From assembly GCA_965205525.1 (NCBI GenBank), contig OZ242171.1, positions 1,869,098 through 1,933,097 of the forward strand: a DNA stretch of 64,000 nucleotides, in the 5' to 3' direction. The stretch's first letter is position 1; every line of letters starts with the position of its first letter. The position numbers were made by a program, and so were the translations under genes. The notes under the pieces are model-generated. The model was not told the DNA's origin, searched no databases, and worked only from the letters and a program-made list of their open reading frames with translations. This document shows positions 1 through 64,000 of this stretch, piece after piece. This DNA comes from Gammaproteobacteria bacterium (GTDB taxonomy: Bacteria; Pseudomonadota; Gammaproteobacteria; JABABF01).

Positions 1-2283
1 CACAATCCCCAGCGGACCACGCCTCCAGTCAAAGGCCAGAGTAGCCCGGTTATGGGGCTGGAAATCCTCAATGATTGAGCGCGCCTCCCGGTTATAGAAT
101 CCCTCCGGGTCAATGCCGCCCGGGGCGCTCAGTTTTTCTATATTGGTGTTGGTATAGGAATACGCTAGCGAAGATTTCAAAATACCCTTGAACAATTCTC
201 CATCCATGGAGATCACCAAGTCAATCCCATTGGTTTCGGTTTCAATCGCATTGAAGAAGACTGAGGCTTGGTCCAGGCCGCGCTCGGCCAGCGAGTCCGC
301 TGCCATATCCAAGTTCAATCCGCGCAAGCTGGCAATGCCCAATCTTCCGCTGAGGGCAATGCGGTCATCAATATCAATGCGATAGACATCTGCCGTTATG
401 GAAACATTGTTCCATGGATTCAGGACAAAACCGAGGCTGTAGTTATTAGAGGTCTCAAAGTCCAAGTCATCAATGCCTAAGGCCGCAGAAAACGGATCCT
501 CTGTGCTGGCAATGAGTGTCTGCGCCAGTTCAACACCATCGGCCGCCGACTGGGTCACGATAGAGGTAAAGCCGAGCTGCGGCAGAGAAGGCGCCCGGAA
601 ACCAGTGGAAAATGCGCCGCGCAGAGCAAGGACTTCATCAATGATTTGTATTCGGGAGCTCAGCTTGCCGGTGAGCCGCTGGCCGACATCCTCGTAGTCC
701 TCGTAGCGCAGAGCTGCTCCCGCCAGCCAGCGCTCCGTAAAATTCTTTTCAAAGTCCACATACAGCCCGAAACTGGCGCGATCAAGGTCGGTCTCCACGG
801 CGGGGCTGTAACCGGGGAATGCCTGAAAGCCGCAGTCTGCCGCAACTGCGGAATTGACGATAGAGGAAAACGGTGTTGTGCCATTGCCTAGACCACAGGA
901 ATAGGAAGCTTTATCGCCGGCCTCAAGTTCATAGTTCTCGTCGCGGTATTCGGCGCCGAAGGCGATATGAAGCGGAAAGCTCCCCCATAGATCCAGCTCG
1001 CCGATGACATCATAGTTAAACGTCAGCTGCCCAAGCCTTACTGTCCCGGAATCGCCGGACGTAGGCCCCGCATTAGCAGCGATATCCGCATCTGCTGCCC
1101 CCGGATTATTGGCTAAATACTCTGCTGCGATGGATGCGTTTATAGTGTTTTCTGCACCGAAGGAAAATTCATTCACACCGTAATTGGCACTGAAATCCCA
1201 GCTCCAGCCGTCGGCGATCTCTCCTCGGAAACCGGTAACGATAAACCAGTCTTCGCTGTCCGTGTTCTGCAGCGGCAGGAAGCCATTCGGATGCACTTGC
1301 GGCACGGCACGGTTTGCCTGAAACGGGAAGCGATAAAAACCAGTGGACTGTCCTTCACGCTCGCTGTACTTGGCCATGAGATAAAACGCCAGAGTGTCGG
1401 TTATCGGAATCATGCCGTTGGCCATAAACAGCCAGTTTTCGTCATCGCCGTCACCAAAACGATAAATAGTTTGTCCGGCAGTGGGTCGCGCCTCAATGCC
1501 AGCATTGCGGTAAGTGGTCTGCCCGGTGCCCGATATATCCGGAGTGCCCGCCACAGTGCGGTTGGATCTCTCCGCCCGATTGGTGAAATCCCTTTCACGC
1601 GCTTCAAAGCTAAGGTTCAGGAAGCCGCTGTTTGGCAATGAAAAGCCCTGGTTCAGGGACACCGAGTATGTATCGCCATCGCCCTCGTAGGTAGAGCCCC
1701 AAAGGGCTCTTATGCTGGTGCCTTCGGAGTTTTCTTTCAGTATCAGGTTAACTACCCCCGCTATGGCATCGGAGCCGTACTGGGAGGATGCGCCATCGCG
1801 CAATACTTCTATGCGATCTATGGCCGCCACGGGAATAGTGTTGAAGTCAACACCGGTCGCCCCCCGGCCCAAGGATTCGGTAACATTCATCCACGCCTGG
1901 CCGACATGCCGCTTGCCGTTCACCAGCACCAGCACGTGGTCCGGTCCCAAGCCGCGCAGTGTTGCCGGGCGTGCCGAATCAGAGCCGTCAGATATGTTGT
2001 TGGTGCCGAAATTAAAAGATGGGGCAAGCTGCTGCAGCAGGCGTGCGGTTTCAATGTGGCCCGTATTGCCCAGCAGCTCAGAATTGAATACATCCACTGG
2101 CACCGCGGTCTCTTCCGCCGTGCGGCCAGCGACGCGAGTGCCTATGGTGACAACTTCTTCAATCCTCAGGTCCTGGGCCTGCACATCCGCCGAATGCGGC
2201 CAAAGGACTGCGAGCAGCAGGGCGATAGCGGCTGCCAGGGATTGTTTTTCAGAAGAATATCGGGATGGTATCAATTGGATCAT
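1..2283 (-). CDS. TonB-dependent outer-membrane receptor, 5' end in window and C-terminus beyond position 1 (partial)
   Basis: Reverse-strand translation from ATG at 2283 gives MIQLIPSRYSSEKQSLAAAIALLLAVLWPHSADVQAQDLRIEEVVTIGTRVAGRTAEETAVPVDVFNSELLGNTGH...LRGLGPDHVLVLVNGKRH, a signal peptide plus TonB box/plug domain. No reported minus-strand ORF shares this frame, consistent with an open frame running off the edge. Starts 22 bp after the stop of the upstream decarboxylase gene, so an operon is likely. Confidence 0.7.
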   Translation of the reverse strand, partial: MIQLIPSRYSSEKQSLAAAIALLLAVLWPHSADVQAQDLRIEEVVTIGTRVAGRTAEETAVPVDVFNSELLGNTGHIETARLLQQLAPSFNFGTNNISDGSDSARPATLRGLGPDHVLVLVNGKRHVGQAWMNVTESLGRGATGVDFNTIPVAAIDRIEVLRDGASSQYGSDAIAGVVNLILKENSEGTSIRALWGSTYEGDGDTYSVSLNQGFSLPNSGFLNLSFEARERDFTNRAERSNRTVAGTPDISGTGQTTYRNAGIEARPTAGQTIYRFGDGDDENWLFMANGMIPITDTLAFYLMAKYSEREGQSTGFYRFPFQANRAVPQVHPNGFLPLQNTDSEDWFIVTGFRGEIADGWSWDFSANYGVNEFSFGAENTINASIAAEYLANNPGAADADIAANAGPTSGDSGTVRLGQLTFNYDVIGELDLWGSFPLHIAFGAEYRDENYELEAGDKASYSCGLGNGTTPFSSIVNSAVAADCGFQAFPGYSPAVETDLDRASFGLYVDFEKNFTERWLAGAALRYEDYEDVGQRLTGKLSSRIQIIDEVLALRGAFSTGFRAPSLPQLGFTSIVTQSAADGVELAQTLIASTEDPFSAALGIDDLDFETSNNYSLGFVLNPWNNVSITADVYRIDIDDRIALSGRLGIASLRGLNLDMAADSLAERGLDQASVFFNAIETETNGIDLVISMDGELFKGILKSSLAYSYTNTNIEKLSAPGGIDPEGFYNREARSIIEDFQPHNRATLAFDWRRGPLGIV

Positions 2284-2305
2284 GCTGAAACTTCTGTGGA
2301 CTATA

Positions 2306-3667
2306 TCAGTGCAAAGAATATAGGATTTTTCTAATTTTGGGAAGCCAGTCTCCGTGCTCTGGCTTTAACAGGCAGGAGCGCAGACACTGCACCGTAGCCT
2401 CGTCACATTCCACCGAGGGCTGGTGGTGCGCCATCACGGACGCCGGCAGAGTGATCAGTGCCAAATGCAAATTCCGCTCTGCCGCCTTCTTGTAATACTG
2501 AGCAGAAGCGGCAGAAATTTCGGAGATCTTTTGGCGGTTTGGCACCCAGACCAGTATATCCAGCTCGGGCTCCATCAGCGTCAGGTAGCCCTCATCCTCC
2601 AAGAGGTGCCGGTACAGCCTTAATGCAGCGGCGCGTGATTTGGACAGCTCCTCTGCAAACTTGCCGCCTTTTTCCATAGGCAGCAGCTGCAGAGTCGCCC
2701 ACAGGGCGACAGCGGAGGCACCGGCCCGAGAGCATTCCAAGCTGATTTTTCCCATGTGCATATCGGGATTGGCAGAACTGAAAAAAGTATAGGGAGAGTC
2801 GTATTGAAAAATAGAGCTGACAGACGAATCGCGAAACAGTATGCAGCCACAGCCATAGGGCTGCAGACCGTGCTTATGCGGATCCACAACTATAGAATCG
2901 ACCTTGTGCAAAGCATGGAACGCCTGGCGGGCATTTTCTCCCAAATTGTCTGCCAGCAGAAAATAGCCGCCGTAGGCAGCATCCACATGTACACGAAAAT
3001 GGTATTTATCCCGCAGCTCAAGGATGCGATGCAGCGGGTCTATTGCACCCACGCCGGTAGTGCCCAAGGTTGCAACCACTGTGCCCACCTTGCCCGACTG
3101 CAGGATCTCCTCCAATGCGGCGATCTCCATCTGTGCATTCACATCGGCTGGAACCGACTGGAATGGCAGCTGCAGCACATCAGAGATGCGTGCATGAGTA
3201 AAGTGCGCCTGCGCGGAGGCAACTATTTTCTTGCCAGGATGCACCTTGCCGGCGGCCCACAGGGCTTCCATGTTGGCGATGGTGCCGGAAGTGCTCAAGT
3301 GGCCGATATATCCATCCTGCCAGCCGTACAGCCTGGCAATATCGGCAACCGCTTCTTTTTCCATCATGGAGCTGGCACGACCGCCCTCGTAGGCATGATT
3401 ATTGGGGTTAATCCACATGGCCATGGTATAGGCCAGGCGCGCTAAGGGGTGGGCCGGCTTATTCATATGCCCCGCATACAGAGGGTGCGGATATGGGTAG
3501 TTGTCGCGCATCCTCTCTGCGGCCTGCAGTAACACCCGCCTGATACCCGGCAGATCTGTGTCGGTTTCAAAGGCCGGCAGATCTTCGAAACCAGCTTCAA
3601 GGGTGTCCAAGGCTTCGCTCAGCAAAGAAAGACTTTTTTTCTCCAGCATATGTCTGTGCAAACTCAT
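2306..3667 (-). CDS. PLP-dependent group II amino-acid decarboxylase (DOPA/diaminobutyrate/lysine decarboxylase-like)
   Basis: 453-aa ORF with group II decarboxylase hallmarks: STSGTIANMEAL, DAAYGG, and the PLP-lysine region VVDPHKHGLQPYGCG. Confidence 0.8.
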   Translation of the reverse strand: MSLHRHMLEKKSLSLLSEALDTLEAGFEDLPAFETDTDLPGIRRVLLQAAERMRDNYPYPHPLYAGHMNKPAHPLARLAYTMAMWINPNNHAYEGGRASSMMEKEAVADIARLYGWQDGYIGHLSTSGTIANMEALWAAGKVHPGKKIVASAQAHFTHARISDVLQLPFQSVPADVNAQMEIAALEEILQSGKVGTVVATLGTTGVGAIDPLHRILELRDKYHFRVHVDAAYGGYFLLADNLGENARQAFHALHKVDSIVVDPHKHGLQPYGCGCILFRDSSVSSIFQYDSPYTFFSSANPDMHMGKISLECSRAGASAVALWATLQLLPMEKGGKFAEELSKSRAAALRLYRHLLEDEGYLTLMEPELDILVWVPNRQKISEISAASAQYYKKAAERNLHLALITLPASVMAHHQPSVECDEATVQCLRSCLLKPEHGDWLPKIRKILYSLH

Positions 3668-3901
3668 ACTCGCCGATATTATAAGTCCAGATCAGTTCAC
3701 CAAATTTTCTGCCGGAAAGCAGCAAATGTTCCGCTATTGATATGCTCGGCTTACAGAAATAATACTAAAACCGCACTTTGCGCCAAAAGCCAGTTCGGTG
3801 GGATACTCTGCTGCTCTTCTCGCAAAGGCGGGTATGCTAAATGGCAGATATCTGTGCACATGCCGCCAGCAGCATATACATTTAACTGAGGGGAGAATAA
3901 A

Positions 3902-4522
3902 GTGGCCGTTTTGAAAAGAGCAGTCTTTAATGACGGCAAGCTGCGCTGCGAGTGGGCAGCTAAGAGTGCCCTGCTCGCCTGCTATCACGACCGTGAATGG
4001 GGCGAGCCCCTGCATGACGACCAAGTGCATTTTGAATTCCTGCTGTTAGACGGTGCCCAGGCGGGGCTGAGCTGGCGGACCATCTTGGAAAAGCGTGAAA
4101 ACTATCGCACTGCTTTTGATGGCTTTGATCCGCGCAAGATCGCCCGTTACGATGCCAGAAAGGTGCGCTCACTGCTCAAAAACGCAGGCATTGTTCGCAA
4201 TCGTCTCAAGATCCGCTCCTCCATTGTCAATGCGCAGGTATTCCTGGCCATTCAGGAGGAGTTCGGCAGCTTTAATAAATATGTGTGGAAATTTGTCGGT
4301 GGCAAAACCATTCAGAACAGGTGGAAAACTGCCAGCAAGGTTCCGGCGTCCACCGCCAAAAGTGACGCACTGGCCGCCGACCTGAAAAAGCGCGGCATGT
4401 CCTTTGTCGGCACGACAATCATTTATGCCTATATGCAATCTGCCGGAATGGTGAACGACCATACCATCAACTGCTTCCGCCATGCCGAGCTGACCCGGAG
4501 CCGTCGCCGCTCGCGTTCCTGA
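3902..4522 (+). CDS. tag: DNA-3-methyladenine glycosylase I
   Basis: CEW...YHDREWGEP..D..FEFL.L.GAQAGLSW.TIL.KRE.YR.AF..FD..KIA...VRSLL.NAGIVRNRLKI...NAQ.FL.IQEEFGSF..YVW.FV is near-canonical Tag. GTG start at 3902 is preceded by GGGGAG. Confidence 0.85.
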   Translation: MAVLKRAVFNDGKLRCEWAAKSALLACYHDREWGEPLHDDQVHFEFLLLDGAQAGLSWRTILEKRENYRTAFDGFDPRKIARYDARKVRSLLKNAGIVRNRLKIRSSIVNAQVFLAIQEEFGSFNKYVWKFVGGKTIQNRWKTASKVPASTAKSDALAADLKKRGMSFVGTTIIYAYMQSAGMVNDHTINCFRHAELTRSRRRSRS

Positions 4523-4577
4523 TTACAATGAGGGGCTGCTGAAGCAAAATCACCGCCAGATACCGAGGGGGGTGCAA

Positions 4578-5999
4578 ATGTCCGATTATTCCATGCTCAT
4601 TGACGGCAAGGCTGTTGCCGCCGACAAAACCTTTGAGGTGAAAAATCCAGCTACCGGCGAGATCGTCGGACGCTGTCCCATCGCTTCCAGAGATCACCTG
4701 GATCAGGCGGTGGCCGCCGCACAGAGAGCTTTTGCCGCCTGGTCCCGCACATCGGACGAGGAGCGGGCCGAGACTTGCCGCAAGATGGCAGGCGCGGTTG
4801 CAGCGCATGCAGAGGAGCTGGCCCGGCTGCTGACCCAAGAGCAGGGCAAACCCCTCAAGGGGGTTGGCTCCGAGGCGGAGGTAAGCGGCTGCAGTACTTG
4901 GGCAATGCATACCGCTGACCTGACTCTGCCGGTTAAGGTTATTCAGGATGACGAACAGGCACGCGTTGAGCAGCACCGCAAACCGCTGGGAGTGGTCGGC
5001 TCCATCACCCCCTGGAATTGGCCTCTGATGATCGCCACCTGGCATGTGACACCGGCCATCCGCACCGGCAATACTGCTGTTATCAAGCCTTCCCCCTACA
5101 CGCCGCTCAGCACCATACGTCTGGTAGAGATCTTCAATGAGGTGCTGCCGCCGGGGGTGCTGAACTTGGTCACCGGGCAGGACTCGCTGGGACAGTGGAT
5201 GACGGAGCATCCGGGTATTCAGAAGATCATCTTCACCGGTTCAAGTCCAACCGGCAAAAAGGTGATGAGCAGCGCCGCTTCAAACCTGAAACGTCTCACC
5301 TTGGAGCTGGGGGGCAACGATGCCGGCATCGTGCTGAAGGACGCAGAACCAAAAGCTATTGCTGAGAAGATTATCCACAGTGCCTTTATCAACAACGGCC
5401 AGACCTGCGCGGCGCTGAAGCGCCTGTATGTGCACGAAGATATCTATGATGCCATGTGCGAGGTGCTGGTAAAAGCCGCCTCAGGAGTGGCGATGGGCAA
5501 CGGCCTGGATGAAAACAACAGGCAGGGGCCGATACAGAATGATATGCAGTACAAGAAAGTCCTGGCACTGCTGGAAGATGCGAAAAAATCTGGGGCAACT
5601 GTGCTATGCGGCGGCGAAGCACCGGAGGGACCGGGATACTTTCTGCCCTACACGCTGGTGTCCGACATCAGTGATGGCACCCGACTCGTAGATGAAGAAC
5701 AGTTCGGTCCAGTGCTGCCCATCATCAGATATAGCGATGAAGAAGATGTTATCAGGCGCGCCAATAACTCCGAGAACGGCCTCGGCGGCTCTGTCTGGTC
5801 TGCTGATATTGAACATGCTGCCGATCTGGCCTCGCGCCTGGAATGCGGCACCGCCTGGGTAAACGCCCATGGCAACATCATGCCGCATGTGCCTTTCGGC
5901 GGCGTGAAGTCATCCGGCTTCGGCGTTGAGTTTGCCGAAGAAGGACTGGAGGAATATACCTCTATTCAGATAGTGAATGTGAACAAGGGTGGCGGATAG
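4578..5999 (+). CDS. NAD(P)-dependent aldehyde dehydrogenase
   Basis: ALDH family motifs ITPWNWPL, ELGGNDAGIV, FINNGQTCAA, EEQFGPV and GGVKSSGFG. ATG at 4578 is preceded by GAGGGGGG; the ORF track starts 6 nt earlier at a GTG. Confidence 0.85.
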   Translation: MSDYSMLIDGKAVAADKTFEVKNPATGEIVGRCPIASRDHLDQAVAAAQRAFAAWSRTSDEERAETCRKMAGAVAAHAEELARLLTQEQGKPLKGVGSEAEVSGCSTWAMHTADLTLPVKVIQDDEQARVEQHRKPLGVVGSITPWNWPLMIATWHVTPAIRTGNTAVIKPSPYTPLSTIRLVEIFNEVLPPGVLNLVTGQDSLGQWMTEHPGIQKIIFTGSSPTGKKVMSSAASNLKRLTLELGGNDAGIVLKDAEPKAIAEKIIHSAFINNGQTCAALKRLYVHEDIYDAMCEVLVKAASGVAMGNGLDENNRQGPIQNDMQYKKVLALLEDAKKSGATVLCGGEAPEGPGYFLPYTLVSDISDGTRLVDEEQFGPVLPIIRYSDEEDVIRRANNSENGLGGSVWSADIEHAADLASRLECGTAWVNAHGNIMPHVPFGGVKSSGFGVEFAEEGLEEYTSIQIVNVNKGGG

Positions 6000-6038
6000 G
6001 CATTTTTCGCACTGTCCGCTGCATAAAAGTTTTGCGAA

Positions 6039-6971
6039 ATGGAGTACCTGCGCTACCTGTCATGCTGCGCATTTCTTATCTTGTCGGGATGTGAAATGCA
6101 TGGCCTCCCCTCTGCCGGCACGGTATCCCCCGCCTCAGGCAGTGACGCTGCCACAGAAAAATCACCCGCGCCATGCACTGCCGACGCACTTCCTGAACAT
6201 ATCGTCCGAGCCATGCAGGAAGGCAGGCGCATGGCAGCCTGTTTTATCCCATACCTTATCACTCTAGACCAGGGCACAGAAGTGCAGAAGCAGGTGGTGG
6301 CTTTGCTCGCCCGGGAGCGGGAGCGGGTGGGATACAAGCTGGCGGCTGCGGGCAGGCAAGCCCAGGATCGTCTTGCGATCAATGCCCCCCTAACCGGCGT
6401 GCTGTTCCGGGACATGCTGCTGCCCAGCGGTGCGAGCATTCCGGCGACAGCAGGCGCCGAATTGGTTTATGAAGCCGATCTGCTGGCAGAGGTCGGCGAT
6501 GAAGCCATCAATGAAGCGCACTCCCTGCAGCATGCCGCTCGGAGCCTGCGCAGGATCATTGCTTTCCTGGAAGTCGCGGACCTTATGATGCCAGCGGGTG
6601 TGCCGAATAACGGTCCACAGCTGCTTGCGGTCAATACCAGCGCCCGTTTCGGCGTGACTGGCGATAGCACAGCAGTCCGGAATGACACAGCGTTTGTCGC
6701 TGCACTCGCCGCAATGAAAGTGACACTGCACAACGGGACTGGCGAAGTATTGGCAGAAGCTCTCGGTGCTCAGCTGCTGGGAAATCCACTGCAGGCGGTA
6801 CTGCATCTGCGCGATGAAGTTCAGCGGCGAGGTGAACGGCTGCGCTCTGGAGACCTGCTGAGCCTTGGCACATTTACTGTGCCCCGCCGCGTTCGGGCAG
6901 GAGAGCAGGTAACCGCAACCTATTCTATTCCCGGCGAAGGCACCCTGCGGGTGCAGGCGGCTTTTGAATAA
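6039..6971 (+). CDS. putative lipoprotein with 2-keto-4-pentenoate hydratase (MhpD/HpcG)-like domain
   Basis: N-terminus MEYLRYLSCCAFLILSGC has a lipobox LSGC. C-terminal half aligns to MhpD-type hydratases: LEVADLM, LLGNPLQAVLHLRDEVQRRGERLRSGDLLSLGTFT, VRAGEQVTATYSIPGEGTLRVQAAF. Confidence 0.55.
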   Translation: MEYLRYLSCCAFLILSGCEMHGLPSAGTVSPASGSDAATEKSPAPCTADALPEHIVRAMQEGRRMAACFIPYLITLDQGTEVQKQVVALLARERERVGYKLAAAGRQAQDRLAINAPLTGVLFRDMLLPSGASIPATAGAELVYEADLLAEVGDEAINEAHSLQHAARSLRRIIAFLEVADLMMPAGVPNNGPQLLAVNTSARFGVTGDSTAVRNDTAFVAALAAMKVTLHNGTGEVLAEALGAQLLGNPLQAVLHLRDEVQRRGERLRSGDLLSLGTFTVPRRVRAGEQVTATYSIPGEGTLRVQAAFE

Positions 6972-7131
6972 AAATTGGCTCACTGCAGTGGGGCACGCAG
7001 TCTACTGCTGACTTCTCTTTATCCTGTCATGCCGCAGTCTTGAATAATGGCCTTTTTAATGAGTTTCGTCCGCATTGACTAAAACAGCAGCAGATGGCGG
7101 ACTAACCAATGATTGGAGGCAGGCGACAGAT

Positions 7132-7890
7132 CTACTCTCCAAAAGAATAGTTGAACTTTTCTATTTCCCACTTCGCAAATTCTGCAACCAAGTCACGCGA
7201 TTCGTTATCATAATACTCAGAATAATGATATTCCCCTTGTGTACGCTCTATATGCTCTATCAGAGGAAGCTTCTTCCCAATCTCTGGATAATTAATCTTT
7301 TCCCCGATATAGGCAAGATCCTCCTGCCAGTTTTCATGTTTTGCAACAAAATCTACAATCATATCTCCATCTTCATCAAGCAGGTATTCTCTTGCAGGCC
7401 TAATGGAAAATTTCTCCTCCTTTTCCTCCTCCAAAAGTATATACGCCAGCCAATGCCCAAACATCGGCTTTAAGACAATAGGAGGCGGCAAGATTATACA
7501 ATCAAATATGTTTTTATGATGAAGGAAGAAAAACGATAAATACCAGCTCCATGGGTTTCTTACCATACTAAAAGTGAAGATTTTCTGCCACAGCTGATCT
7601 CCCAGACACATGTGCATCTGTTGCGCTGTGCTATGGTCTGCTATAAATGGCAGAATGCGCCGCCTCAAAAGACCAGTTCTATGAATAAAATCATTCCTCC
7701 CGTAAGGCCAGCCAAATTGCCCCCATAACTCCTGCTTAATAGAGGGGGAACCTGTGCAAGGAATGTCTACAAACCAGCAGTCTGCTTTGGAAATTCTACT
7801 GCGAATGGAATACCAGACAATTTGCTTAATAGTAGACAGCGGCAAATACTTCGCCCAACGCGCATAGCGCGGACTATACCATAAGGACAT
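7132..7890 (-). CDS. sulfotransferase family 2-like protein (copy A, motif-degenerate)
   Basis: 252 aa in a low-GC segment. 5'-PSB-like motif is DIPCTGSPS (expected IPKTGGTS) and the 3'-PB region is FTFSMVRNPWSWYLS (expected RNPxDR). C-terminal ~110 aa are ~85% identical to copy B. Confidence 0.55.
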   Translation of the reverse strand: MSLWYSPRYARWAKYLPLSTIKQIVWYSIRSRISKADCWFVDIPCTGSPSIKQELWGQFGWPYGRNDFIHRTGLLRRRILPFIADHSTAQQMHMCLGDQLWQKIFTFSMVRNPWSWYLSFFFLHHKNIFDCIILPPPIVLKPMFGHWLAYILLEEEKEEKFSIRPAREYLLDEDGDMIVDFVAKHENWQEDLAYIGEKINYPEIGKKLPLIEHIERTQGEYHYSEYYDNESRDLVAEFAKWEIEKFNYSFGE

Positions 7891-8002
7891 AACACACCTC
7901 TCTTAGAAAAAGAATTTCATGCCGGCACACAGTAGTCCCCTCCCACACCTGCAAGCTTAGCCGGTGGTGGACTGGTAAATGATTGGAATGCAGGCGACAA
8001 GT

Positions 8003-8767
8003 CTACTCTCCAAAAGAATAGTTGAACTTTTCTATTTCCCACCTCGCGATCTCTGCAACCAAGTCACGCGACTCGCTATCATAATATTCGGAATAATGGT
8101 GTTTCTTAGGTGTGTATTGTTCCAGATGCAGCGATTCCCCAAGTTCCGGATAATTAATCTTTTCACTAATGTAAGCAAGATCCTCCTGCCGATTTTCATA
8201 TTTTGCAACAAAATCTACAATCATATCTCCATCTTCATCAAGCAAGAATTCCGCTATAGGTACTATAGGTACTGCACATTTTTCTGTAAGCCTATACATT
8301 AGCTGATACTTAAAAATTGATCTTATCTCATCAAGAAGGTAAGGGACCGGAGGAAAAGATTTACATTTGTAAAAGAAGTCTGATACATATCTGTCCCATG
8401 GATTTCTTACTATACTGAAAGTGAAGGTTTTCTGCCACAGCTGATGTCCCAGACACATACGCATCTGCCGCGCTGTGACATGGCGGTTTACAAATGGAAG
8501 AAGGAAGTCCAACGAAGAATTATATCTATGCCTAATCGGATTCGTCCTTTTATAATTGCTAGTCAAGTAAGGCCAGCCAAATTGCTGACTTAATTCAAAC
8601 CTAGTAGATGTAGAGGATGTGCGAGGTATATCTATAAACCAGAAACCTGCCTTAGAGATTCTATTGCCAGCGATATGCCAGACTATCTGGTCCAGAGAAA
8701 ACCGCTCCAGCAACCTTTCTAAATCTAAAAAAGGATGGACTTTGCCTTGTCTGTAGTGTAAAAGCAT
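8003..8767 (-). CDS. sulfotransferase family 2-like protein (copy B)
   Basis: 254 aa with DIPRTSSTS and FTFSIVRNPWDRYVSDFF motifs. Paralogous to the 7132..7890 gene; low GC. Confidence 0.6.
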   Translation of the reverse strand: MLLHYRQGKVHPFLDLERLLERFSLDQIVWHIAGNRISKAGFWFIDIPRTSSTSTRFELSQQFGWPYLTSNYKRTNPIRHRYNSSLDFLLPFVNRHVTARQMRMCLGHQLWQKTFTFSIVRNPWDRYVSDFFYKCKSFPPVPYLLDEIRSIFKYQLMYRLTEKCAVPIVPIAEFLLDEDGDMIVDFVAKYENRQEDLAYISEKINYPELGESLHLEQYTPKKHHYSEYYDSESRDLVAEIARWEIEKFNYSFGE

Positions 8768-9139: not shown

Positions 9140-9635
9140 CTACTTAATGCCCGGCCATCCTGCTCCAAAGAACTGCGGCACAACCCTCGTGGCCGGGCCG
9201 TGATGAACTTCGTCAAAGACATCGCTGCCAGCTGAAGGCTCTAGGTTGAGCTCTACCGTGCGGGCGCCCGCTGTCTTCGCTATTCGCACGAAATCAGAGG
9301 CGGGGCTTACATTGCCCGAGGTGCCGATGGAGACGAAGATCTCGCATTGGGCCAAGGCTTCATAGACGCATTCCAGCTGCAGGGGCATTTCGCCAAACCA
9401 GACCACATAGGGTCGCAGACTAGTCATGGAGCGGCAATCGGGGCAGCGGTCTTCGGGCAAGATTTCCTCGGCGGATGGGGAAATGCCGCCACAGGCCGTC
9501 GCTGGCACGGAAGGTCGCCACCCCTGACTCAGCAGATACGCCGGCACCGGTAAGAACTGCAATCCTTGATGGGGAGAAACTCATAGGGGAGAAAAGCCGA
9601 GCAATAGAAGACGGCGAGAGTCTATCGTATAACAA
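9140..9635 (-). pseudogene. cobB: NAD-dependent deacylase CobB/Sir2 remnant (frameshift plus internal deletion)
   Basis: N-terminal Sir2 segment IAVLTGAGVSAESGVATFRASDGLW lies in one frame (ORF 9420..9635). The C-terminal segment CPDC...PYVVWFGEMP...IGTSGNVSPA...TVELNLEPS...GPA..VVP lies in another (ORF 9140..9562). Only ~13 codons separate them, where ~100 aa including the QNID.LH catalytic core are expected. Confidence 0.65.
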
Positions 9636-57121: not shown

Positions 57122-57550
57122 ATGAGCCAAGCCAGAGTGCGCTGTGAAATCGTCAGCGCAGAACAGCAGATTTTCTCCGGCGAGGTGGAGATGCTGCTGG
57201 TCACCGGCGCGCTGGGAGACCTCGGTATCGCACCCGGACATGCACCGCTCCTGACCGAGCTGAAACCCGGCCCGATAGAAATCCGCCAGGGCGAGGGCAA
57301 CACCCAGGTGTTTTATGTCTCCGGGGGCTACTTGGAAGTGCAGCCCAACTGCATCACCGTGCTAGCCGATACCGCGCTTCGGGCTGCGGACATAGATGAG
57401 GCGGCGGCAGAGGAGGCGCGCCAGGCGGCGGAGCGGGAGCTGGGCGACCGCAAGGGCGATATGGATTACACAAAAGCTGCCGCGCAACTGGCGGAGGCGG
57501 CGGCGCAGCTGCGGACTCTGCGACAGCTGAGGAATAAGCGCAGCGGATGA
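57122..57550 (+). CDS. atpC: F0F1 ATP synthase subunit epsilon
   Basis: Beta-sandwich N-terminus plus helical C-terminus typical of epsilon; follows atpD. Confidence 0.9.
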
Positions 57551-58590
57551 CCGCACAGCCTGAGTTCCGGGGCAGCGCCTTGGATTATTTCGGGATCTGG
57601 AGCACCAACCTATTTCTAGTAATTCTGACCTTGGGCTTGTACTCCCCCTGGGCCACCGTTCGCAAGCGCAAGTATCTGTACGGCAGCACCTGCCTGCTGA
57701 ACTCGCCGCTGGACTACCATGCCCGGCCGCTGGCAATATTGAATGGCCGCTTGGTGGCTATCCTGCTGCTAGTGCTGATCAGCTTGCTTTCCTTTTTCCC
57801 GATAGCGGAAATATTGTTTTTACCCCTATTCGTTCTAGCAACGCCTTTCTTGGTAGCGCTTGCCTACAGGTTCAGTCTTCGCAATACTTCTTGGCGACAG
57901 GTGCGATTTGATTTCCGGGGCAGCGGCAAAAGTGCTTTCGCTCCCTATTTTTTCTGGCCTTCCCTAGCCATTATGACGCTCGGGCTGCTGCTCCCCTATA
58001 TGCGCTTTCGCCAGCTGCAATACACCACCGACAACATGGAATTCTGCGGGCAGCGCTTTCGTTTCAGCGGCAGGGCCGCCACTCTCTACAAGTTTTATAT
58101 ATTGGCTCTTATCGCTTTTTTTCTGGTTATCTCTGCGTATTTTTTCTTCTTTGCAAACTTTAGAGGTTTCGGCTTTGGCCCGCAGTCACTCCCTACGATT
58201 GCGCAGTCTATTTTAGGATACTGGGGAGATATCCTTGCATTTTTTGCAATAGTTTTCGTCATTCCCACTGCCGTCTATGTGGCCGAACTGCGATACCGAT
58301 ATAACCACACCAGTTTTGGTCCGGACATCGCCCGCTTCAGCAGCGACATCAGCACCGGCGGAATGCTGTGGCTCTCTATGACCAACCTGCTGGCAATTAT
58401 TCTCACCTTGGGTCTGGCCATCCCGTGGGCCGCTATCCGGGTGCTCCGCTATCGTCTCGCCCACATTCAAGTGCACTGCGAGTCCGAAGAGCGCATTGAC
58501 GCGATGATAGGCGAAGCCAAAGGGGAGGCCAGCGCCATTGGCGAGGAGATAGTGGAGGGCTTGGATGTCGGCACGGGCATAGGGATATGA
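57547..58590 (+). CDS. DUF898 (YjgN-like) family inner-membrane protein
   Basis: F.G...[22 protein letters not shown] pattern repeated twice (internal duplication typical of DUF898). ATGA overlap with the atpC stop. Confidence 0.7.
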
Positions 58591-59675
58591 GCAAGACAGA
58601 GGGCCTTCTTTTTGATGGCCGCTCTGCGAAGGGACAGCCTGTTTCACTGGAATGGGACGGCAGCTGCCTGCACATTAATGGAGAACATGGCAGCAGCGTT
58701 TGCAGCCGTGAGTCCCTGCGCGTCAGTGCCGATATCGGCGGCATTTCCCGCTGGATCTACCTGCCCAGCGGCCTGAGCTGCGAGGTGCGGAATTCGGCCT
58801 TCGCCGATGCCCTCTCTCCGCCGCCCCTGCGCCACCGCATCTTGCGAACATTTGAATCCCGCATCGGTCTCAGTATGGTCGCCGCCGTTTTGGTGCTGGC
58901 TGCGGTGGCTTGGGTGATGGCCCGGGGAGTGCCACTGCTGGCAGAGGCTGTAGCTGAGCGCTTGCCGGAGGAGACCCGTGCCGCTGCCGGCGAAGTTGCC
59001 TTGCTGGCAATGAATCAGCTGACCCGCCCCACCAGCCTCGGCACTGCAGAGCAGGCCCGGCTTGCCGCGCTGTTCAGTCGGGTAAAGGAGATGGCCGACC
59101 GGCCCGATGCCACCCTGTACATGCGAGACGGCTGGAGTATCGGCGCAAATGCGATTGCCATACCAGGCGAGCGCCTGGTCATCACCGACCAGCTGGTGCA
59201 GCTTGCAGAAAACGAGGACGAGCTGCTCGGCGTGATGGCGCATGAATTCGGTCATTTTGAATATCAGCACAGCATAAGAATGCTTTTTCTTTCAACCGGC
59301 ATCACGATAATGATGGCGGTTCTGCTCGGCGATATCAGCGCACTCTTTGACCAGGCAGGAGGCTTGCCCGTCCTGCTGGTATACAACGGCTACTCCCGCG
59401 AATTTGAGCAGGAGGCAGACGCCTATGCAATCGCACTCATGCAGGAGGACGGCATAGAACCATGGCATCTGTCCGCACTCCTCAGCCGACTGACCTCTGC
59501 AGCAGAACCCGGCCTGGACTATTTCTCCAGCCACCCGGCCACCGACAAAAGAATAAGAGCAATAGGATGTCCGCCGCTTTCACCAGCGGCAGACTTGCCA
59601 GAAACCGACCTCCTCCGCACCGCATGCATGCCGCAGGACAAGGCTGAAGACCCTGCCGTATTAATACGAAACTAA
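58587..59675 (+). CDS. M48-family zinc metallopeptidase with N-terminal domain and one TM segment
   Basis: HEFGHFEYQH (HExxH) with a downstream EQEADAYA third ligand region. ATGA overlap with the DUF898 stop. Confidence 0.75.
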   Translation: MSKTEGLLFDGRSAKGQPVSLEWDGSCLHINGEHGSSVCSRESLRVSADIGGISRWIYLPSGLSCEVRNSAFADALSPPPLRHRILRTFESRIGLSMVAAVLVLAAVAWVMARGVPLLAEAVAERLPEETRAAAGEVALLAMNQLTRPTSLGTAEQARLAALFSRVKEMADRPDATLYMRDGWSIGANAIAIPGERLVITDQLVQLAENEDELLGVMAHEFGHFEYQHSIRMLFLSTGITIMMAVLLGDISALFDQAGGLPVLLVYNGYSREFEQEADAYAIALMQEDGIEPWHLSALLSRLTSAAEPGLDYFSSHPATDKRIRAIGCPPLSPAADLPETDLLRTACMPQDKAEDPAVLIRN

Positions 59676-59697
59676 CATATTCTGTTTTAGCCTAGTA

Positions 59698-59725
59698 GAC
59701 GAATTCGCCACCCGTCAAAATCGCC
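59698..59725 (+). repeat. 28-bp direct repeat copy 1 (gacGAATTCGCCACCCGTCAAAATCGCC), 120 bp upstream of the GIY-YIG gene
   Basis: Identical 25-mer recurs at 60823-60847. Confidence 0.7.
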
Positions 59726-59844
59726 CCAGACACGGGTCTCCCCCTCCGTGGAGCAGGTCGCTAAGAACTTATTATAATGAAAATCCATGTCATAATCGAT
59801 TATGGTAATTAGTCAGAGTTGCCTTAATTTAATAGGAAAAAATC

Positions 59845-60675
59845 ATGAGTTCAATCCCAATTACAGATATCCTTGATATTGACAAACCAAGTGCATACAA
59901 ACTTCATGCCGCTCGGTATAATCGAGTCGATGAACCACTTTCTGTGTATGTTAGAGACAAGGATGAGTGGGTTGGCTGGAATAAGTGGAGAGGGGAAAGG
60001 CATGATTTCAATCGGCGATATATATTTTCATTGATTGATTTTTATCATGAAGCAAACACGTGGTTATTTGGTGGAATATTCAAAGTGATGGAAGAAAAGA
60101 AAGGTGAAAATTATAAGATAAAAAAGCTTAGTCAATATTCTAATTATGTTGGTAGATTGAAAGTTAAATGGACTCCCCCCAGTAGAAACCGGGCCTTTAA
60201 ATTGGAGAAGTATTTGGAAGAAATGATAGTCTCTGAGATTCTGAAACTGCGATATTCAGGAGAAAGTTTTCCCGGGTACGAAAACATAAATCATCGCTTC
60301 AGCACCCTAGAACCTATATTCAAAAATGAAGTCGCTGGGTGGAAAGCCGCATTAGAGAACGTTAAAGGGGTTTATGTGGTTATGGATGACTCCAATGGAA
60401 AAAAATATGTTGGATCTGCATATGGAGAAGATGGCGTTTGGTCTCGCTGGGGTTGTTACATCGGAACAGGCGGGCATGCGTGGAATGATGAGCTTGAAAA
60501 ACTAATTAAGAAGAAAGGGCCCGACTACGCACATAATCATTTCACGCTATCATTGCTTGAGCATTACCCAATGAAGGTAGATGACAGCGTGATTATAGGC
60601 AAGGAGGGCAGGGAGAATTACTGGAAAAAAGTATTTCTCTCAAGCTCAAAAAAGTTTGGCTACAACAAAAACTAG
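59845..60675 (+). CDS. GIY-YIG nuclease-domain protein (N-terminal domain unknown), low-GC
   Basis: C-terminal GVYVVMDDSNGKKYVGSAYGEDGVWSRW...H matches the GIY-YIG catalytic motif. Gene GC is far below the genome average. Confidence 0.6.
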   Translation: MSSIPITDILDIDKPSAYKLHAARYNRVDEPLSVYVRDKDEWVGWNKWRGERHDFNRRYIFSLIDFYHEANTWLFGGIFKVMEEKKGENYKIKKLSQYSNYVGRLKVKWTPPSRNRAFKLEKYLEEMIVSEILKLRYSGESFPGYENINHRFSTLEPIFKNEVAGWKAALENVKGVYVVMDDSNGKKYVGSAYGEDGVWSRWGCYIGTGGHAWNDELEKLIKKKGPDYAHNHFTLSLLEHYPMKVDDSVIIGKEGRENYWKKVFLSSSKKFGYNKN

Positions 60676-60819
60676 AGATTTAGGGAATATCTGATTAATA
60701 CGCGAAAACTTTGTGGTCAATGCGAAACTCTCTTTTATTATTCAGATATGCGGCATTGGTGCCGATGAAACTGCGGCACTTTTCACCACTTCAGCAACAA
60801 ACACATGCTATGCTGTAAA

Positions 60820-60847
60820 GATGAATTCGCCACCCGTCAAAATCGCC
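60820..60847 (+). repeat. 28-bp direct repeat copy 2 (gatGAATTCGCCACCCGTCAAAATCGCC), 37 bp upstream of the methyltransferase gene
   Basis: Identical 25-mer to 59701-59725. Confidence 0.7.
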
Positions 60848-60883: not shown

Positions 60884-61648
60884 ATGCCAATGCCTAGACC
60901 AGTTGCCAAACGGATTGAACCGATCAATGCGTCATCCGATACGCTGACCGCCAGCGTGTTCTCAAGTGTTCGGACTGTCCAACTGCCGGCGATAGAAATA
61001 CCCGCCGGCTTGAAGCTGAACAAGCGTATGAAAATGGACGGCTTGAAATTCCTTTCCAAACTGCCGGACAGCGCCATACCGGTCGCGTTCTTTGACCCGC
61101 AATATCGGGGGATACTCGACAAAATGTCGTATGGTAACGAGGGTATCGGACGCAGCCAGCGCCGCTGCGCTTTGCAGCAAATGACCGAGCCGACTATCGC
61201 CGAGTTTATTCGTGAGATTGATCGGGCACTGATACCAAGCGGGCATCTATTCCTATGGATGGATAAATTCCATCTTTGCAACGGCTTCCGTGGATGGCTG
61301 GACGCAACCGACCTTGATATTGTCGATCTGGTGAATTGGGATAAAGGCAAAATCGGCATGGGATATAGAAGCCGCCGGACTACCGAATACTGCGTCGTGC
61401 TGCAAAAGAAACCCCGCAAGGCCAAAGGCGTATGGAAAGTACACAATATCCCGGACACCTGGCGAGAGAAAACAAACAACGGAAACGGGCACCCGCATAA
61501 AAAACCGTTGGACTTGCAAGGCGAGCTAATCGCCGCCGTGAGCAATGAAGGTGATATTGTGATCGACCCGGCGGCCGGTGGTTTTACAGTGCTAGAAGCG
61601 GCAAAGCTGCAGCGTCGTAACTTTCTAGGCTGCGACCTAAACGGGTAA
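60884..61648 (+). CDS. beta-class N6-adenine/N4-cytosine DNA methyltransferase
   Basis: Motif IV FFDPQY (DPPY variant) precedes motif I IVIDPAAGGFTVLEAAKLQRRNFLGCDL; conserved HPHKKPLDLQGELI. Confidence 0.75.
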   Translation: MPMPRPVAKRIEPINASSDTLTASVFSSVRTVQLPAIEIPAGLKLNKRMKMDGLKFLSKLPDSAIPVAFFDPQYRGILDKMSYGNEGIGRSQRRCALQQMTEPTIAEFIREIDRALIPSGHLFLWMDKFHLCNGFRGWLDATDLDIVDLVNWDKGKIGMGYRSRRTTEYCVVLQKKPRKAKGVWKVHNIPDTWREKTNNGNGHPHKKPLDLQGELIAAVSNEGDIVIDPAAGGFTVLEAAKLQRRNFLGCDLNG

Positions 61649-61719: not shown

Positions 61720-62832
61720 TTAATCAACAACTAAACTATAAGAAGGCAGCAAGTCGCGTAACACGTATGTGCGGTGAATTGCCGCAGCACGATAAAACTG
61801 CCAAACTGGAGATTTTATGGCTTTAAAATAGTTTTCTTGGTTGTTAAACGCTTCCCATTCTTCATTCCAAGATTCGCCATCGTAGTCAGGTATCTGCTCA
61901 CCACTTTCAGTGCCAAATATCTTTCCCGATTCAGCAGCATCTTTCCAGACTTGGATTCGTCCTTCCTTGTTGGCCTGTGTTGCTAAAATGTTTATTACAC
62001 TGTCTCTGATGCTAGAGAATGGACGTCCATCTCCAGAATTATACTGCCCATTGGCTTGGGAAAATTTCCCAAATACTCTGTGTAAAGCTTGGCATCCCTC
62101 AAGAAAAGTTTCAGGATTATTTCTCTCACTCAACCGATTTTCTGCTTCAGCATCATCTTCATCATATTTGAAACTCCATTTCAAAAAGGGGCGGTCCGGG
62201 AAGGTTGCGGCAGCACCATGCCCCAAAGCGCCAGAGGCTATTTCGGCAACTATGCCTCCCAACGTGCTTTTTATATTTTTTATAGAGAAAGCATTTTCCT
62301 TTTTTTTGAAAAACTCTTTTTCTTTAGCACGAACATAGTCCTTAATTTTTTGGTCAAGGCCTTCATCAATATAAATTGAGGAATGCTTAATCTTGTTTCC
62401 ACGGGAGCTAATACCAGAAAAACCGTAGTGCGAAAAGGTATCAGCGTAAACATGTGCGCCAATCCCTATCAACTCACGAGCGAATCCGCGGCCTGCAAAA
62501 CCAAGATGGTGCTCGATCATCTCTCTTGCTGGTTTGCTGTCTTTTCGGCATTTCATCCTATCTCTATAGCTTTCACCAATATTGCCTGGAATAAAATGGA
62601 AAGGCACCCATACCCTACGCTGATCGTGTGGATCCAGATTCGCTAGCGTCATAGGGTGATGAGCAGTAGCTTCACTATCTATTCTTGATCCGTCTTCAAA
62701 TTCAAGAGCTTCCTTTGCCACATTGTCGTCTACAAATTGAGCACAGGTCGCAATAATTATTGCGGCATCCTGACTAAGGCCAGCGGCTCTCGCCATCGAG
62801 TAAGTGCCATGGTAATGCATGTCTAATTGCAT
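61720..62832 (-). CDS. hypothetical His-rich protein (possible metal-dependent hydrolase/nuclease-like), low-GC
   Basis: 370 aa. MQLDMHYHGTYSMARAAG...HHPMTL...HHLGFAGRG...GAHVYADTFSHYGF form clusters of His/Asp suggestive of metal binding. No confident family assignment. Confidence 0.45.
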   Translation of the reverse strand: MQLDMHYHGTYSMARAAGLSQDAAIIIATCAQFVDDNVAKEALEFEDGSRIDSEATAHHPMTLANLDPHDQRRVWVPFHFIPGNIGESYRDRMKCRKDSKPAREMIEHHLGFAGRGFARELIGIGAHVYADTFSHYGFSGISSRGNKIKHSSIYIDEGLDQKIKDYVRAKEKEFFKKKENAFSIKNIKSTLGGIVAEIASGALGHGAAATFPDRPFLKWSFKYDEDDAEAENRLSERNNPETFLEGCQALHRVFGKFSQANGQYNSGDGRPFSSIRDSVINILATQANKEGRIQVWKDAAESGKIFGTESGEQIPDYDGESWNEEWEAFNNQENYFKAIKSPVWQFYRAAAIHRTYVLRDLLPSYSLVVD

Positions 62833-63124
62833 GACATTGCTCCTTTTTGTAAAATTCCAGTTTGCCTTATAAAACTAAGGCCACCATCAAATATATACCA
62901 TGCTCTATTCTTCATGTTCAGTCAACCCCACTAAATTATACGCCGCGCTGAATGCTGGCGCAGGCCGATGGAGATCGCTGGATAAGTGAGTTATAGGTTT
63001 CACGGCAAATAAACTGTATGAAATACGGATACCCGCCCGATATTGTGTATATCCTCTCCACCGATGCATCATCCAACTTCACCTTTTCGGTTAAAATCAC
63101 TCGGCTTTGTCACGCAGATCGGAT

Positions 63125-64000
63125 ATGCAAACAGAAGACGAATGGAGAAAAGCGCTTGACGTGCTGCGCGGGACTTTCGGGTTTTCGGAGTTCCGCCCCC
63201 ACCAGGGAGAGGTCATACGGACGCTGCTGGCCGGCAGGGATGCGATTGCGGTGATGCCCACCGGCGGCGGCAAGTCGCTTTGCTATCAGATTCCGTCGAT
63301 CGTGCGCCGGGGGACCGGGGTGGTGGTTTCGCCGCTGATTGCACTGATGAAAGACCAGGTCGATGCCCTGCGCCAATACGGGGTTCGTGCGGCGTTTTTG
63401 AATTCCAGCCTGTCGTATGGCGAGCGCCTCGATACCGAGCAGACTTTCCTGCGCGGCGGTTTTGATTTGATCTATATGGCGCCGGAGGGCCTGCTCAGCG
63501 AGCCGATGCTGCAGCTGCTGGAAAAGGTCGATATTGCGCTGTTTGCAGTTGACGAGGCGCACTGCGTATCGCGCTGGGGGCACGATTTTCGGCGGGAGTA
63601 TCTGGGGCTTTCGGTGCTGGCGGAGCTGTTTCCCGAGGTGCCGCGGGTGGCGCTCACCGCCACCGCCGACGAGATGACGCAGCGCGAGATCACCGAGCAG
63701 CTGCGGCTGCGCAGCGCGGACAGGCATATCGCCGGCTACGACCGCCCCAACATCCGCTACATGATCAGCGAATCGGCCAACGCCCGGCAGTCGCTGCTCA
63801 ATTTCATCACCGAAAACCATGCCGGCGACAGCGGCATTGTCTATTGCATGTCGCGCAACGGCGTCGAGAAAACCGCCGAGTGGCTGGCCGCAAAAGGATT
63901 TTCGGCAGTTGCCTATCACGCCGGCATGACGCCCTCGGAGCGCGAGCATAATCACAACCGCTTCTTGAACGAGGCCGGCATCATCGTCGTGGCGACGATC
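63125..64000 (+). CDS. recQ: ATP-dependent DNA helicase RecQ (N-terminal 292 aa; continues beyond window)
   Basis: MQTEDEWRKALDVLRGTFGFSEFRPHQGEVIRTLLAGRDAIAVMPTGGGKSLCYQIP...DEAHCVSRWGHDFR...LTATAD. Not in the ORF track because it runs off the edge. Confidence 0.9.
   Translation, partial: MQTEDEWRKALDVLRGTFGFSEFRPHQGEVIRTLLAGRDAIAVMPTGGGKSLCYQIPSIVRRGTGVVVSPLIALMKDQVDALRQYGVRAAFLNSSLSYGERLDTEQTFLRGGFDLIYMAPEGLLSEPMLQLLEKVDIALFAVDEAHCVSRWGHDFRREYLGLSVLAELFPEVPRVALTATADEMTQREITEQLRLRSADRHIAGYDRPNIRYMISESANARQSLLNFITENHAGDSGIVYCMSRNGVEKTAEWLAAKGFSAVAYHAGMTPSEREHNHNRFLNEAGIIVVATI

Follow-up and report, generated by a model that had tools for sequence, protein, structure and literature searches.

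The window analysed here is a stretch of 64,000 nucleotides of a gammaproteobacterial contig (OZ242171.1), and our subject is an open reading frame (ORF) of 370 amino acids on its minus strand. An earlier note, made from the sequence, had taken the product for a His-rich protein outside any family, with an HYHGTY motif near the N-terminus and a further motif downstream, and had found the spacing of its His and Asp residues reminiscent of zinc-dependent phospholipase C (PLC) and S1/P1 nuclease folds. The ORF is there with its ATG start, as are the two motifs, at residues 6-11 and, in the form GAHVYADTFSHYGF, at residues 125-138. The description as His-rich holds only mildly, with 14 His among 370 residues (3.8%, counted from the translation). 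The protein does belong to a family: it is a full-length member of Pfam DUF6765 (PF20551; E=5.7e-88, 296.1 bits against a cut-off of 26.6), matched end to end, with residues 1-361 on positions 1-325 of the 325-position profile. The gene is real, with 1,859 homologs in a 90%-clustered database and, at 50% identity, at least 1,473 representative clusters, of which 254 have E<=1e-30. A Shine-Dalgarno sequence sits before the ATG, in support of Met1 as the true start of the protein.

61720..62832, minus strand: DUF6765 gene, 370 amino acids, ATG start; predicted cytoplasmic trinuclear-zinc phosphodiesterase of the PLC and S1/P1 nuclease superfamily
62840..62846, minus strand: Shine-Dalgarno sequence AAAGGAG, 7 nt 5' of the DUF6765 ATG, read from the sequence

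DUF6765 is a large family that occurs on Photobacterium, Vibrio and Aeromonas plasmids, on Ralstonia megaplasmids and in many environmental bacteria, and it carries no assigned function; the plasmid homologs are already named 'DUF6765 family protein' in RefSeq. In the library searched, no paper mentioned DUF6765, and searches with the NCBIfam, PADLOC and PHROGs models found no model for the protein, with 0 families matched both among anti-phage defence systems (PADLOC-DB 2.0) and among phage families (PHROGs v4). On viral contigs the family is rare, with eight loci from IMG/VR and no cultured-phage record; tblastn over 50,697 phage records gave no match. A 29%-identical homolog is kept on 127 Ralstonia megaplasmid records, including that of R. 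solanacearum CP023017.1 (locus L101), and its neighbours are annotated as acid phosphatase, cytochrome-c peroxidase, metallophosphoesterase and choline dehydrogenase.

Candidate metal ligands and predicted fold

The fold is described from a confident AlphaFold2 prediction based on 41 members of the family (mean predicted local distance difference test score, pLDDT, 83; predicted template-modelling score, pTM, 0.87). The model is mainly helical, with a single β-hairpin at residues 218-238 and low-confidence stretches within residues 179-207. Its all-α core can be superimposed on solved members of the superfamily that comprises PLC, alpha-toxin and the S1/P1 nucleases, with about 200 residues lying outside the aligned core. 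The structures rank as follows, with a value for each:

1. 1olp, alpha-toxin (clostridial, N-domain), 6.6
2. 1ah7, B. cereus phospholipase C, 6.1
3. 8cqm, Listeria phospholipase C (PlcB), 5.9
4. 8qjl, SmNuc1 S1/P1 nuclease, 5.3
5. 5fb9, S1 nuclease, 5.1
6. 3w52, plant Endonuclease 2, 4.6

Foldseek searches against the PDB and against the BFVD viral structures returned nothing with E<0.9, and PDB sequences searched by phmmer and by profile hmmsearch yielded chance matches only.

The reference PLC and P1 sequences are identical to PDB entries 1ah7 and 1ak0. The invariant columns of the PLC alignment are H14, D55, H69, H118, D122, H128, H142 and E146, with W1 nearly invariant, and those of the S1/P1 alignment are W1, H6, D45, H60, H116, D120, H126, H149 and D153; these columns are the zinc ligands of the two groups of enzymes. 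Conservation in DUF6765 was counted in 244 full-length proteins of 33-100% identity. Five His and three Asp residues stand out as invariants, in the order H-D-H-H-D-H-H-D, which is the acidic/His order found in PLC and S1/P1. Exactly five residues precede the first His in 228 of the 244 proteins, as in P1 nuclease (W1...H6). The motifs that contain these residues are as follows:

62800..62832, minus strand: MQLDMHYHGTY (residues 1-11) with invariant His6 (241/244); Asp4 is found in 232/244
62725..62730, minus strand: Asp35-Asp36 of the FVDDN motif, Asp35 in 243/244; candidate equivalent, by order only, of PLC Asp55 and P1 Asp45
62584..62604, minus strand: PFHFIPG (residues 77-83) with invariant His79 (244/244); candidate equivalent of PLC His69 and P1 His60 (SHFYD and LHFID)
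62419..62460, minus strand: GAHVYADTFSHYGF (residues 125-138), His127-x3-Asp131-x3-His135 (244, 244 and 243 of 244), candidate counterpart of PLC His118-x3-Asp122-x5-His128
62188..62226, minus strand: GALGHGAAATFPDRP (residues 203-215) with invariant His205 and Asp213 (243/244 each); candidate last metal-ligand pair, by order only

Beyond H79, H127 and D131, the equivalence of ligands is assigned by order alone. The last pair, H205-x7-D213, departs from the x3 spacing of PLC His142/Glu146 and P1 His149/Asp153, and H205 lies in a low-pLDDT stretch. H58 and H59 were considered as equivalents of PLC H69; H79 was preferred because of its invariance (244/244) and because its HF motif aligns in hhalign. 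H251, which paired with PLC H142 in inconsistent registers of a hidden Markov model (HMM), was rejected as a ligand, being His in just 177 of the 244 members.

At the level of sequence profiles, the Pfam family Zn_dep_PLPC (PF00882) is matched by 37 of the 41 family members (best E=1.6e-4), and any other family by at most three. Divergent DUF6765 members give further matches to Zn_dep_PLPC and to DUF4184 (PF13803), the latter in two members with E-values of 0.0054 and 0.21, far below threshold and on the same H-x3-D helix; DUF4184, likewise an uncharacterised family, is grouped with PLC-like families. These matches are not mutually independent, as all of them reflect one conserved motif. Alignment by hhalign of two DUF6765 alignments with a single PLC sequence, a 19-sequence PLC profile or a 3-sequence S1/P1 profile was never significant, and in three runs, at non-significant E-values of 0.15-0.6, it paired H79, H127 and D131 with H69, H118 and D122 of PLC. 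A self-built PLC-family HMM searched against 270 DUF6765 sequences reached a best E of 0.33, with inconsistent registers. As a calibration, B. cereus PLC matched the S1-P1_nuclease model with E=2e-4, only over its His118-Asp122-His128 region, so that the accepted relationship between PLC and S1/P1 is no easier to recover by HMM than the one proposed here. The likeness suspected in the earlier note is borne out by the similarity of fold and by the order of the invariant residues, and its reading as a whole is partly supported.

Divergence of a variable insert

The protein contains one variable, fast-evolving segment:

62200..62403, minus strand: indel-rich variable insert (residues 144-211); most of it is modelled with low confidence, with segments of pLDDT<50 within residues 179-207

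We compared the window with the corresponding locus of a sister strain (L004). The two DUF6765 alleles differ much more than the sequences around them, and the divergence is centred on residues 144-211, where nucleotide identity falls to 77-78%, against 96-100% in the flanks. The insert holds 28 nonsynonymous (Nd) and 3 synonymous (Sd) differences, giving a ratio of nonsynonymous to synonymous rates (dN/dS) of 2.7; in other parts of the gene the ratio is 0.2-0.65. The dS of the insert is not raised. A Fisher test separates the insert from the remainder of the gene (p=0.006), and the excess of the insert over neutrality is marginal for this single strain pair (p=0.08). The pattern is compatible with diversifying selection or with relaxed constraint on a surface loop next to His205. 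A recombined foreign segment is disfavoured as the source of the divergent patch, since its dS (0.078) does not exceed the values found elsewhere.

Genomic neighbourhoods of DUF6765 genes

Two genes on the opposite strand lie beyond the 3' end of the DUF6765 gene:

60884..61648, plus strand: type II N6/N4 DNA methyltransferase (Pfam N6_N4_Mtase, 1.4e-15; PADLOC MTase_II, 2.4e-82)
59845..60675, plus strand: UzuA-like (Uzume) GIY-YIG gene (PADLOC UzuA, 5.1e-45)

As the earlier note had recognized, the DUF6765 gene and the methylase gene converge, with their stop codons 71 bp apart, and they lie in a low-GC island, which consists of the UzuA-like gene (GC 0.40), the methylase (0.53) and the DUF6765 ORF (0.431). 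The GC content of the DUF6765 ORF at third codon positions (GC3) is 0.369, compared with 0.774 in atpD, and the atp genes have an overall GC of about 0.62. The island is bordered by a block comprising the atp operon, a DUF898 gene and an M48 peptidase gene on one side and by a RecQ helicase gene starting at 63125 (plus strand) on the other.

The earlier note also implied an association of the DUF6765 gene with the methylase and the GIY-YIG nuclease. The three genes are adjacent within a single island, and the methylase-DUF6765 pair is found in L004 too, where the M48 gene, the methylase gene, the convergent DUF6765 gene and recQ follow one another with flanks that are 98-100% identical; both points speak for DUF6765 as a component of a restriction-modification (R-M) or Uzume-type module. 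L004, however, is not independent evidence, because its flanks are about 98% identical to those of the window, and it lacks the UzuA-like gene. That gene sits on an insertion of ~1.07 kb (59695-60766) absent from L004. Direct repeats of 29 nt, 97% identical to each other, flank it at 59697-59725 and 60819-60847, and L004 has one copy of them. The cassette is a separate indel; moreover, Uzume has been described as a single-gene GIY-YIG system (preprint, 10.1101/2024.10.26.620412). Of the two repeats, one precedes the UzuA-like start by 120 nt and the other precedes the methylase start by 37 nt. Among 101 DUF6765 loci (80 metagenomic, 8 from IMG/VR, 4 from plasmids and 9 others), a homolog of the window methylase occurred in L004 only, and a UzuA-like homolog in none. 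The 535 neighbouring genes of 91 loci formed clusters of which the biggest spans 5 loci, and the pooled nearest neighbours, 147 proteins with 175 Pfam families, contained no family more than three times and N6_N4_Mtase in 2 of the 147. Being convergent, the DUF6765 and methylase genes are not co-transcribed. The association therefore fails in the co-occurrence comparison, and a lack of conserved association with the neighbouring genes is the very outcome that the earlier note had named as speaking against it. A shared module is highly improbable; DUF6765 is not functionally tied to the methylase or to the GIY-YIG gene, and the gene should be annotated neither as an R-M nor as a Uzume component. 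The DUF6765 gene is instead a horizontally mobile, stand-alone accessory gene of foreign GC content, carried on plasmids and in variable islands.

Around the island, a DUF898 membrane protein gene and a gene for a DUF7092+M48 peptidase (57547-59675, plus strand) directly follow atpC with overlapping stop and start codons, and the pair is present in L004 as well. The DUF6765 gene and recQ are separated by 290 bp, in which lies a 54-aa ORF with ISGGYPYFIQFICRETY (62936-63100, minus strand); it has no Pfam match, the segment is 100% identical in L004, and the ORF seems to be left over from a larger gene that may have encoded an ATPase. Beyond recQ, L004 carries a defence-type island (1597-7772) with GIY_YIG_3/DUF6884, Peptidase_M78, ThsB_TIR, Nmad2, MazG_C and UDG. 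The window has a second low-GC patch (GC 0.42-0.43; 7132-8767 and 9140-9562, both minus strand), in which two tandem genes of ~250 aa with weak Sulfotransfer_2 matches (E 5e-4 and 6e-7) are followed by a 140-aa ORF with a partial SIR2 match.

Elsewhere, some DUF6765 neighbourhoods resemble defence regions or mobile elements, with Gabija-like OLD-TOPRIM and UvrD genes, type I R-M, HicB, HigA and transposases, and others are metabolic. In six loci (L015, L020, L021, L026, L044 and L047) a gene for a protein resembling phospholipase A2 (PLA2) adjoins DUF6765, and in four of five clustered copies it lies directly downstream on the same strand. The product, 120-142 aa in the five clustered copies, has a CCLPHDLGY motif, a Phospholip_A2_3 match of 30 bits, just above threshold, and no obvious signal peptide. 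Eight loci share a three-gene operon in which genes for a lipoprotein-like protein of ~221 aa and a protein of ~89 aa precede DUF6765; three are on plasmids of Photobacterium (L098), Vibrio atlanticus (L099) and Aeromonas salmonicida (L100), and the remaining ones are L024, L032, L041, L062 and L074. Neither partner had a meaningful Pfam or PADLOC match. Two proteins, P0219 (894 aa) and P0233 (617 aa), have an N-terminal DUF6765 domain fused to a C-terminal KAP-family P-loop NTPase that weakly matches PADLOC QatA (E 2.7e-12 and 2.8e-05); a literature search for a KAP NTPase with phospholipase C found nothing. Lastly, in L046, L071 and L092 (IMG/VR, a 359-kb contig), the genes of a DUF6765 subgroup have at least four other genes in common as a block, of which one without obvious function resembles a 5'-3' exonuclease. 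This block points to a large phage or phage-like element as the carrier.

Interpretation and comparison with known enzymes

With its superimposable core and shared order of invariant residues, the protein probably belongs, as a divergent and cytoplasmic member, to the trinuclear-zinc phosphoesterase superfamily of PLC/alpha-toxin and the S1/P1 nucleases; we infer zinc binding, phosphodiesterase chemistry and cytoplasmic location. In the mechanism we propose, a core of ~150 residues would carry the active site, with His 6, 79, 127, 135 and 205 and Asp 35, 131 and 213 holding up to three Zn2+ ions on an all-helical scaffold. The free N-terminus, five residues before His6, would possibly add to metal binding, and the Zn2+ ions would activate water for attack on a phosphodiester bond. 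The variable insert and an extra C-terminal part of ~150 residues are specific to the DUF6765 family, and the gene adjoins the methylase and the Uzume-like nuclease cassette as part of neither.

Several observations set the protein apart from the classical enzymes. The window protein matches Zn_dep_PLPC below threshold (13.4 against 26.8 bits, E=0.074, residues 121-173, the region in which GAHVYADTFSHYGF falls), and S1-P1_nuclease (PF02265) matches none of the 41 family members. The DUF6765 core reads H-x3-D-x3-H, in contrast to H118-x3-D122-x5-H128 in PLC and H116-x3-D120-x5-H126 in P1. Trp1, which is exposed by signal-peptide cleavage and binds the third zinc through its amine and carbonyl in 1ah7 and 1ak0, has no counterpart, as the window protein starts with MQLDMH and has Met1 in place of the mature Trp1. 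It is unlikely that the helical resemblance is superficial and that the invariant His and Asp residues bind another cofactor, serve another chemistry or belong to a non-catalytic protein. A different alternative retains the fold and changes the substrate: DUF6765 might be a cytoplasmic single-strand nuclease of the S1/P1 type with the role of a toxin or of a defence effector, abortive infection being one example, and some relatives would be regulated by a fused KAP NTPase. The PLA2-like partner, the operon, the KAP fusion and the Ralstonia context are hints that slightly favour lipid or phosphoester metabolism. We regard the nuclease as a possibility, clearly the lesser one, and lean slightly towards a lipid or small phosphodiester, as for PLC, over single-stranded nucleic acid as the substrate of the proposed phosphoesterase.

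We further speculate that DUF6765 proteins could be stand-alone or NTPase-coupled conflict effectors that, when phages or plasmids attack, break down nucleic acid or membrane lipid, although we consider this unlikely. If it were true, diversifying selection would be acting on the insert at residues 144-211, a lid or sensor next to His205; the fusions to a KAP NTPase and the PLA2-like partners would represent regulated or two-enzyme versions; and the family would be the first branch of the PLC/P1 superfamily that stays inside the cell, unsecreted, and serves immunity. Placement in the superfamily would in any case give DUF6765 a concrete chemistry and eight residues to mutate, and a superfamily mainly known from secreted toxins and nucleases would extend to an apparently cytoplasmic branch with a Met N-terminus in the place of Trp1.

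Relative to Pfam DUF6765, a family with no function attached, the window protein is a full-length member and shows no difference. Relative to the S1/P1 nucleases, it lacks Trp1 and differs in the spacing of the last two motifs; we know of no disulfides, glycosylation or secretion, all typical of those nucleases, in DUF6765. Relative to the secreted PLC enzymes, it has no signal-like segment or signal peptide and is presumably cytoplasmic, its last candidate ligand pair is H-x7-D rather than H-x3-E, and it is longer by ~125 residues, which include the variable insert and a C-terminal helical part with the β-hairpin. The proposed placement would make DUF6765 a new, large branch of a known superfamily, with unusual features of its own.
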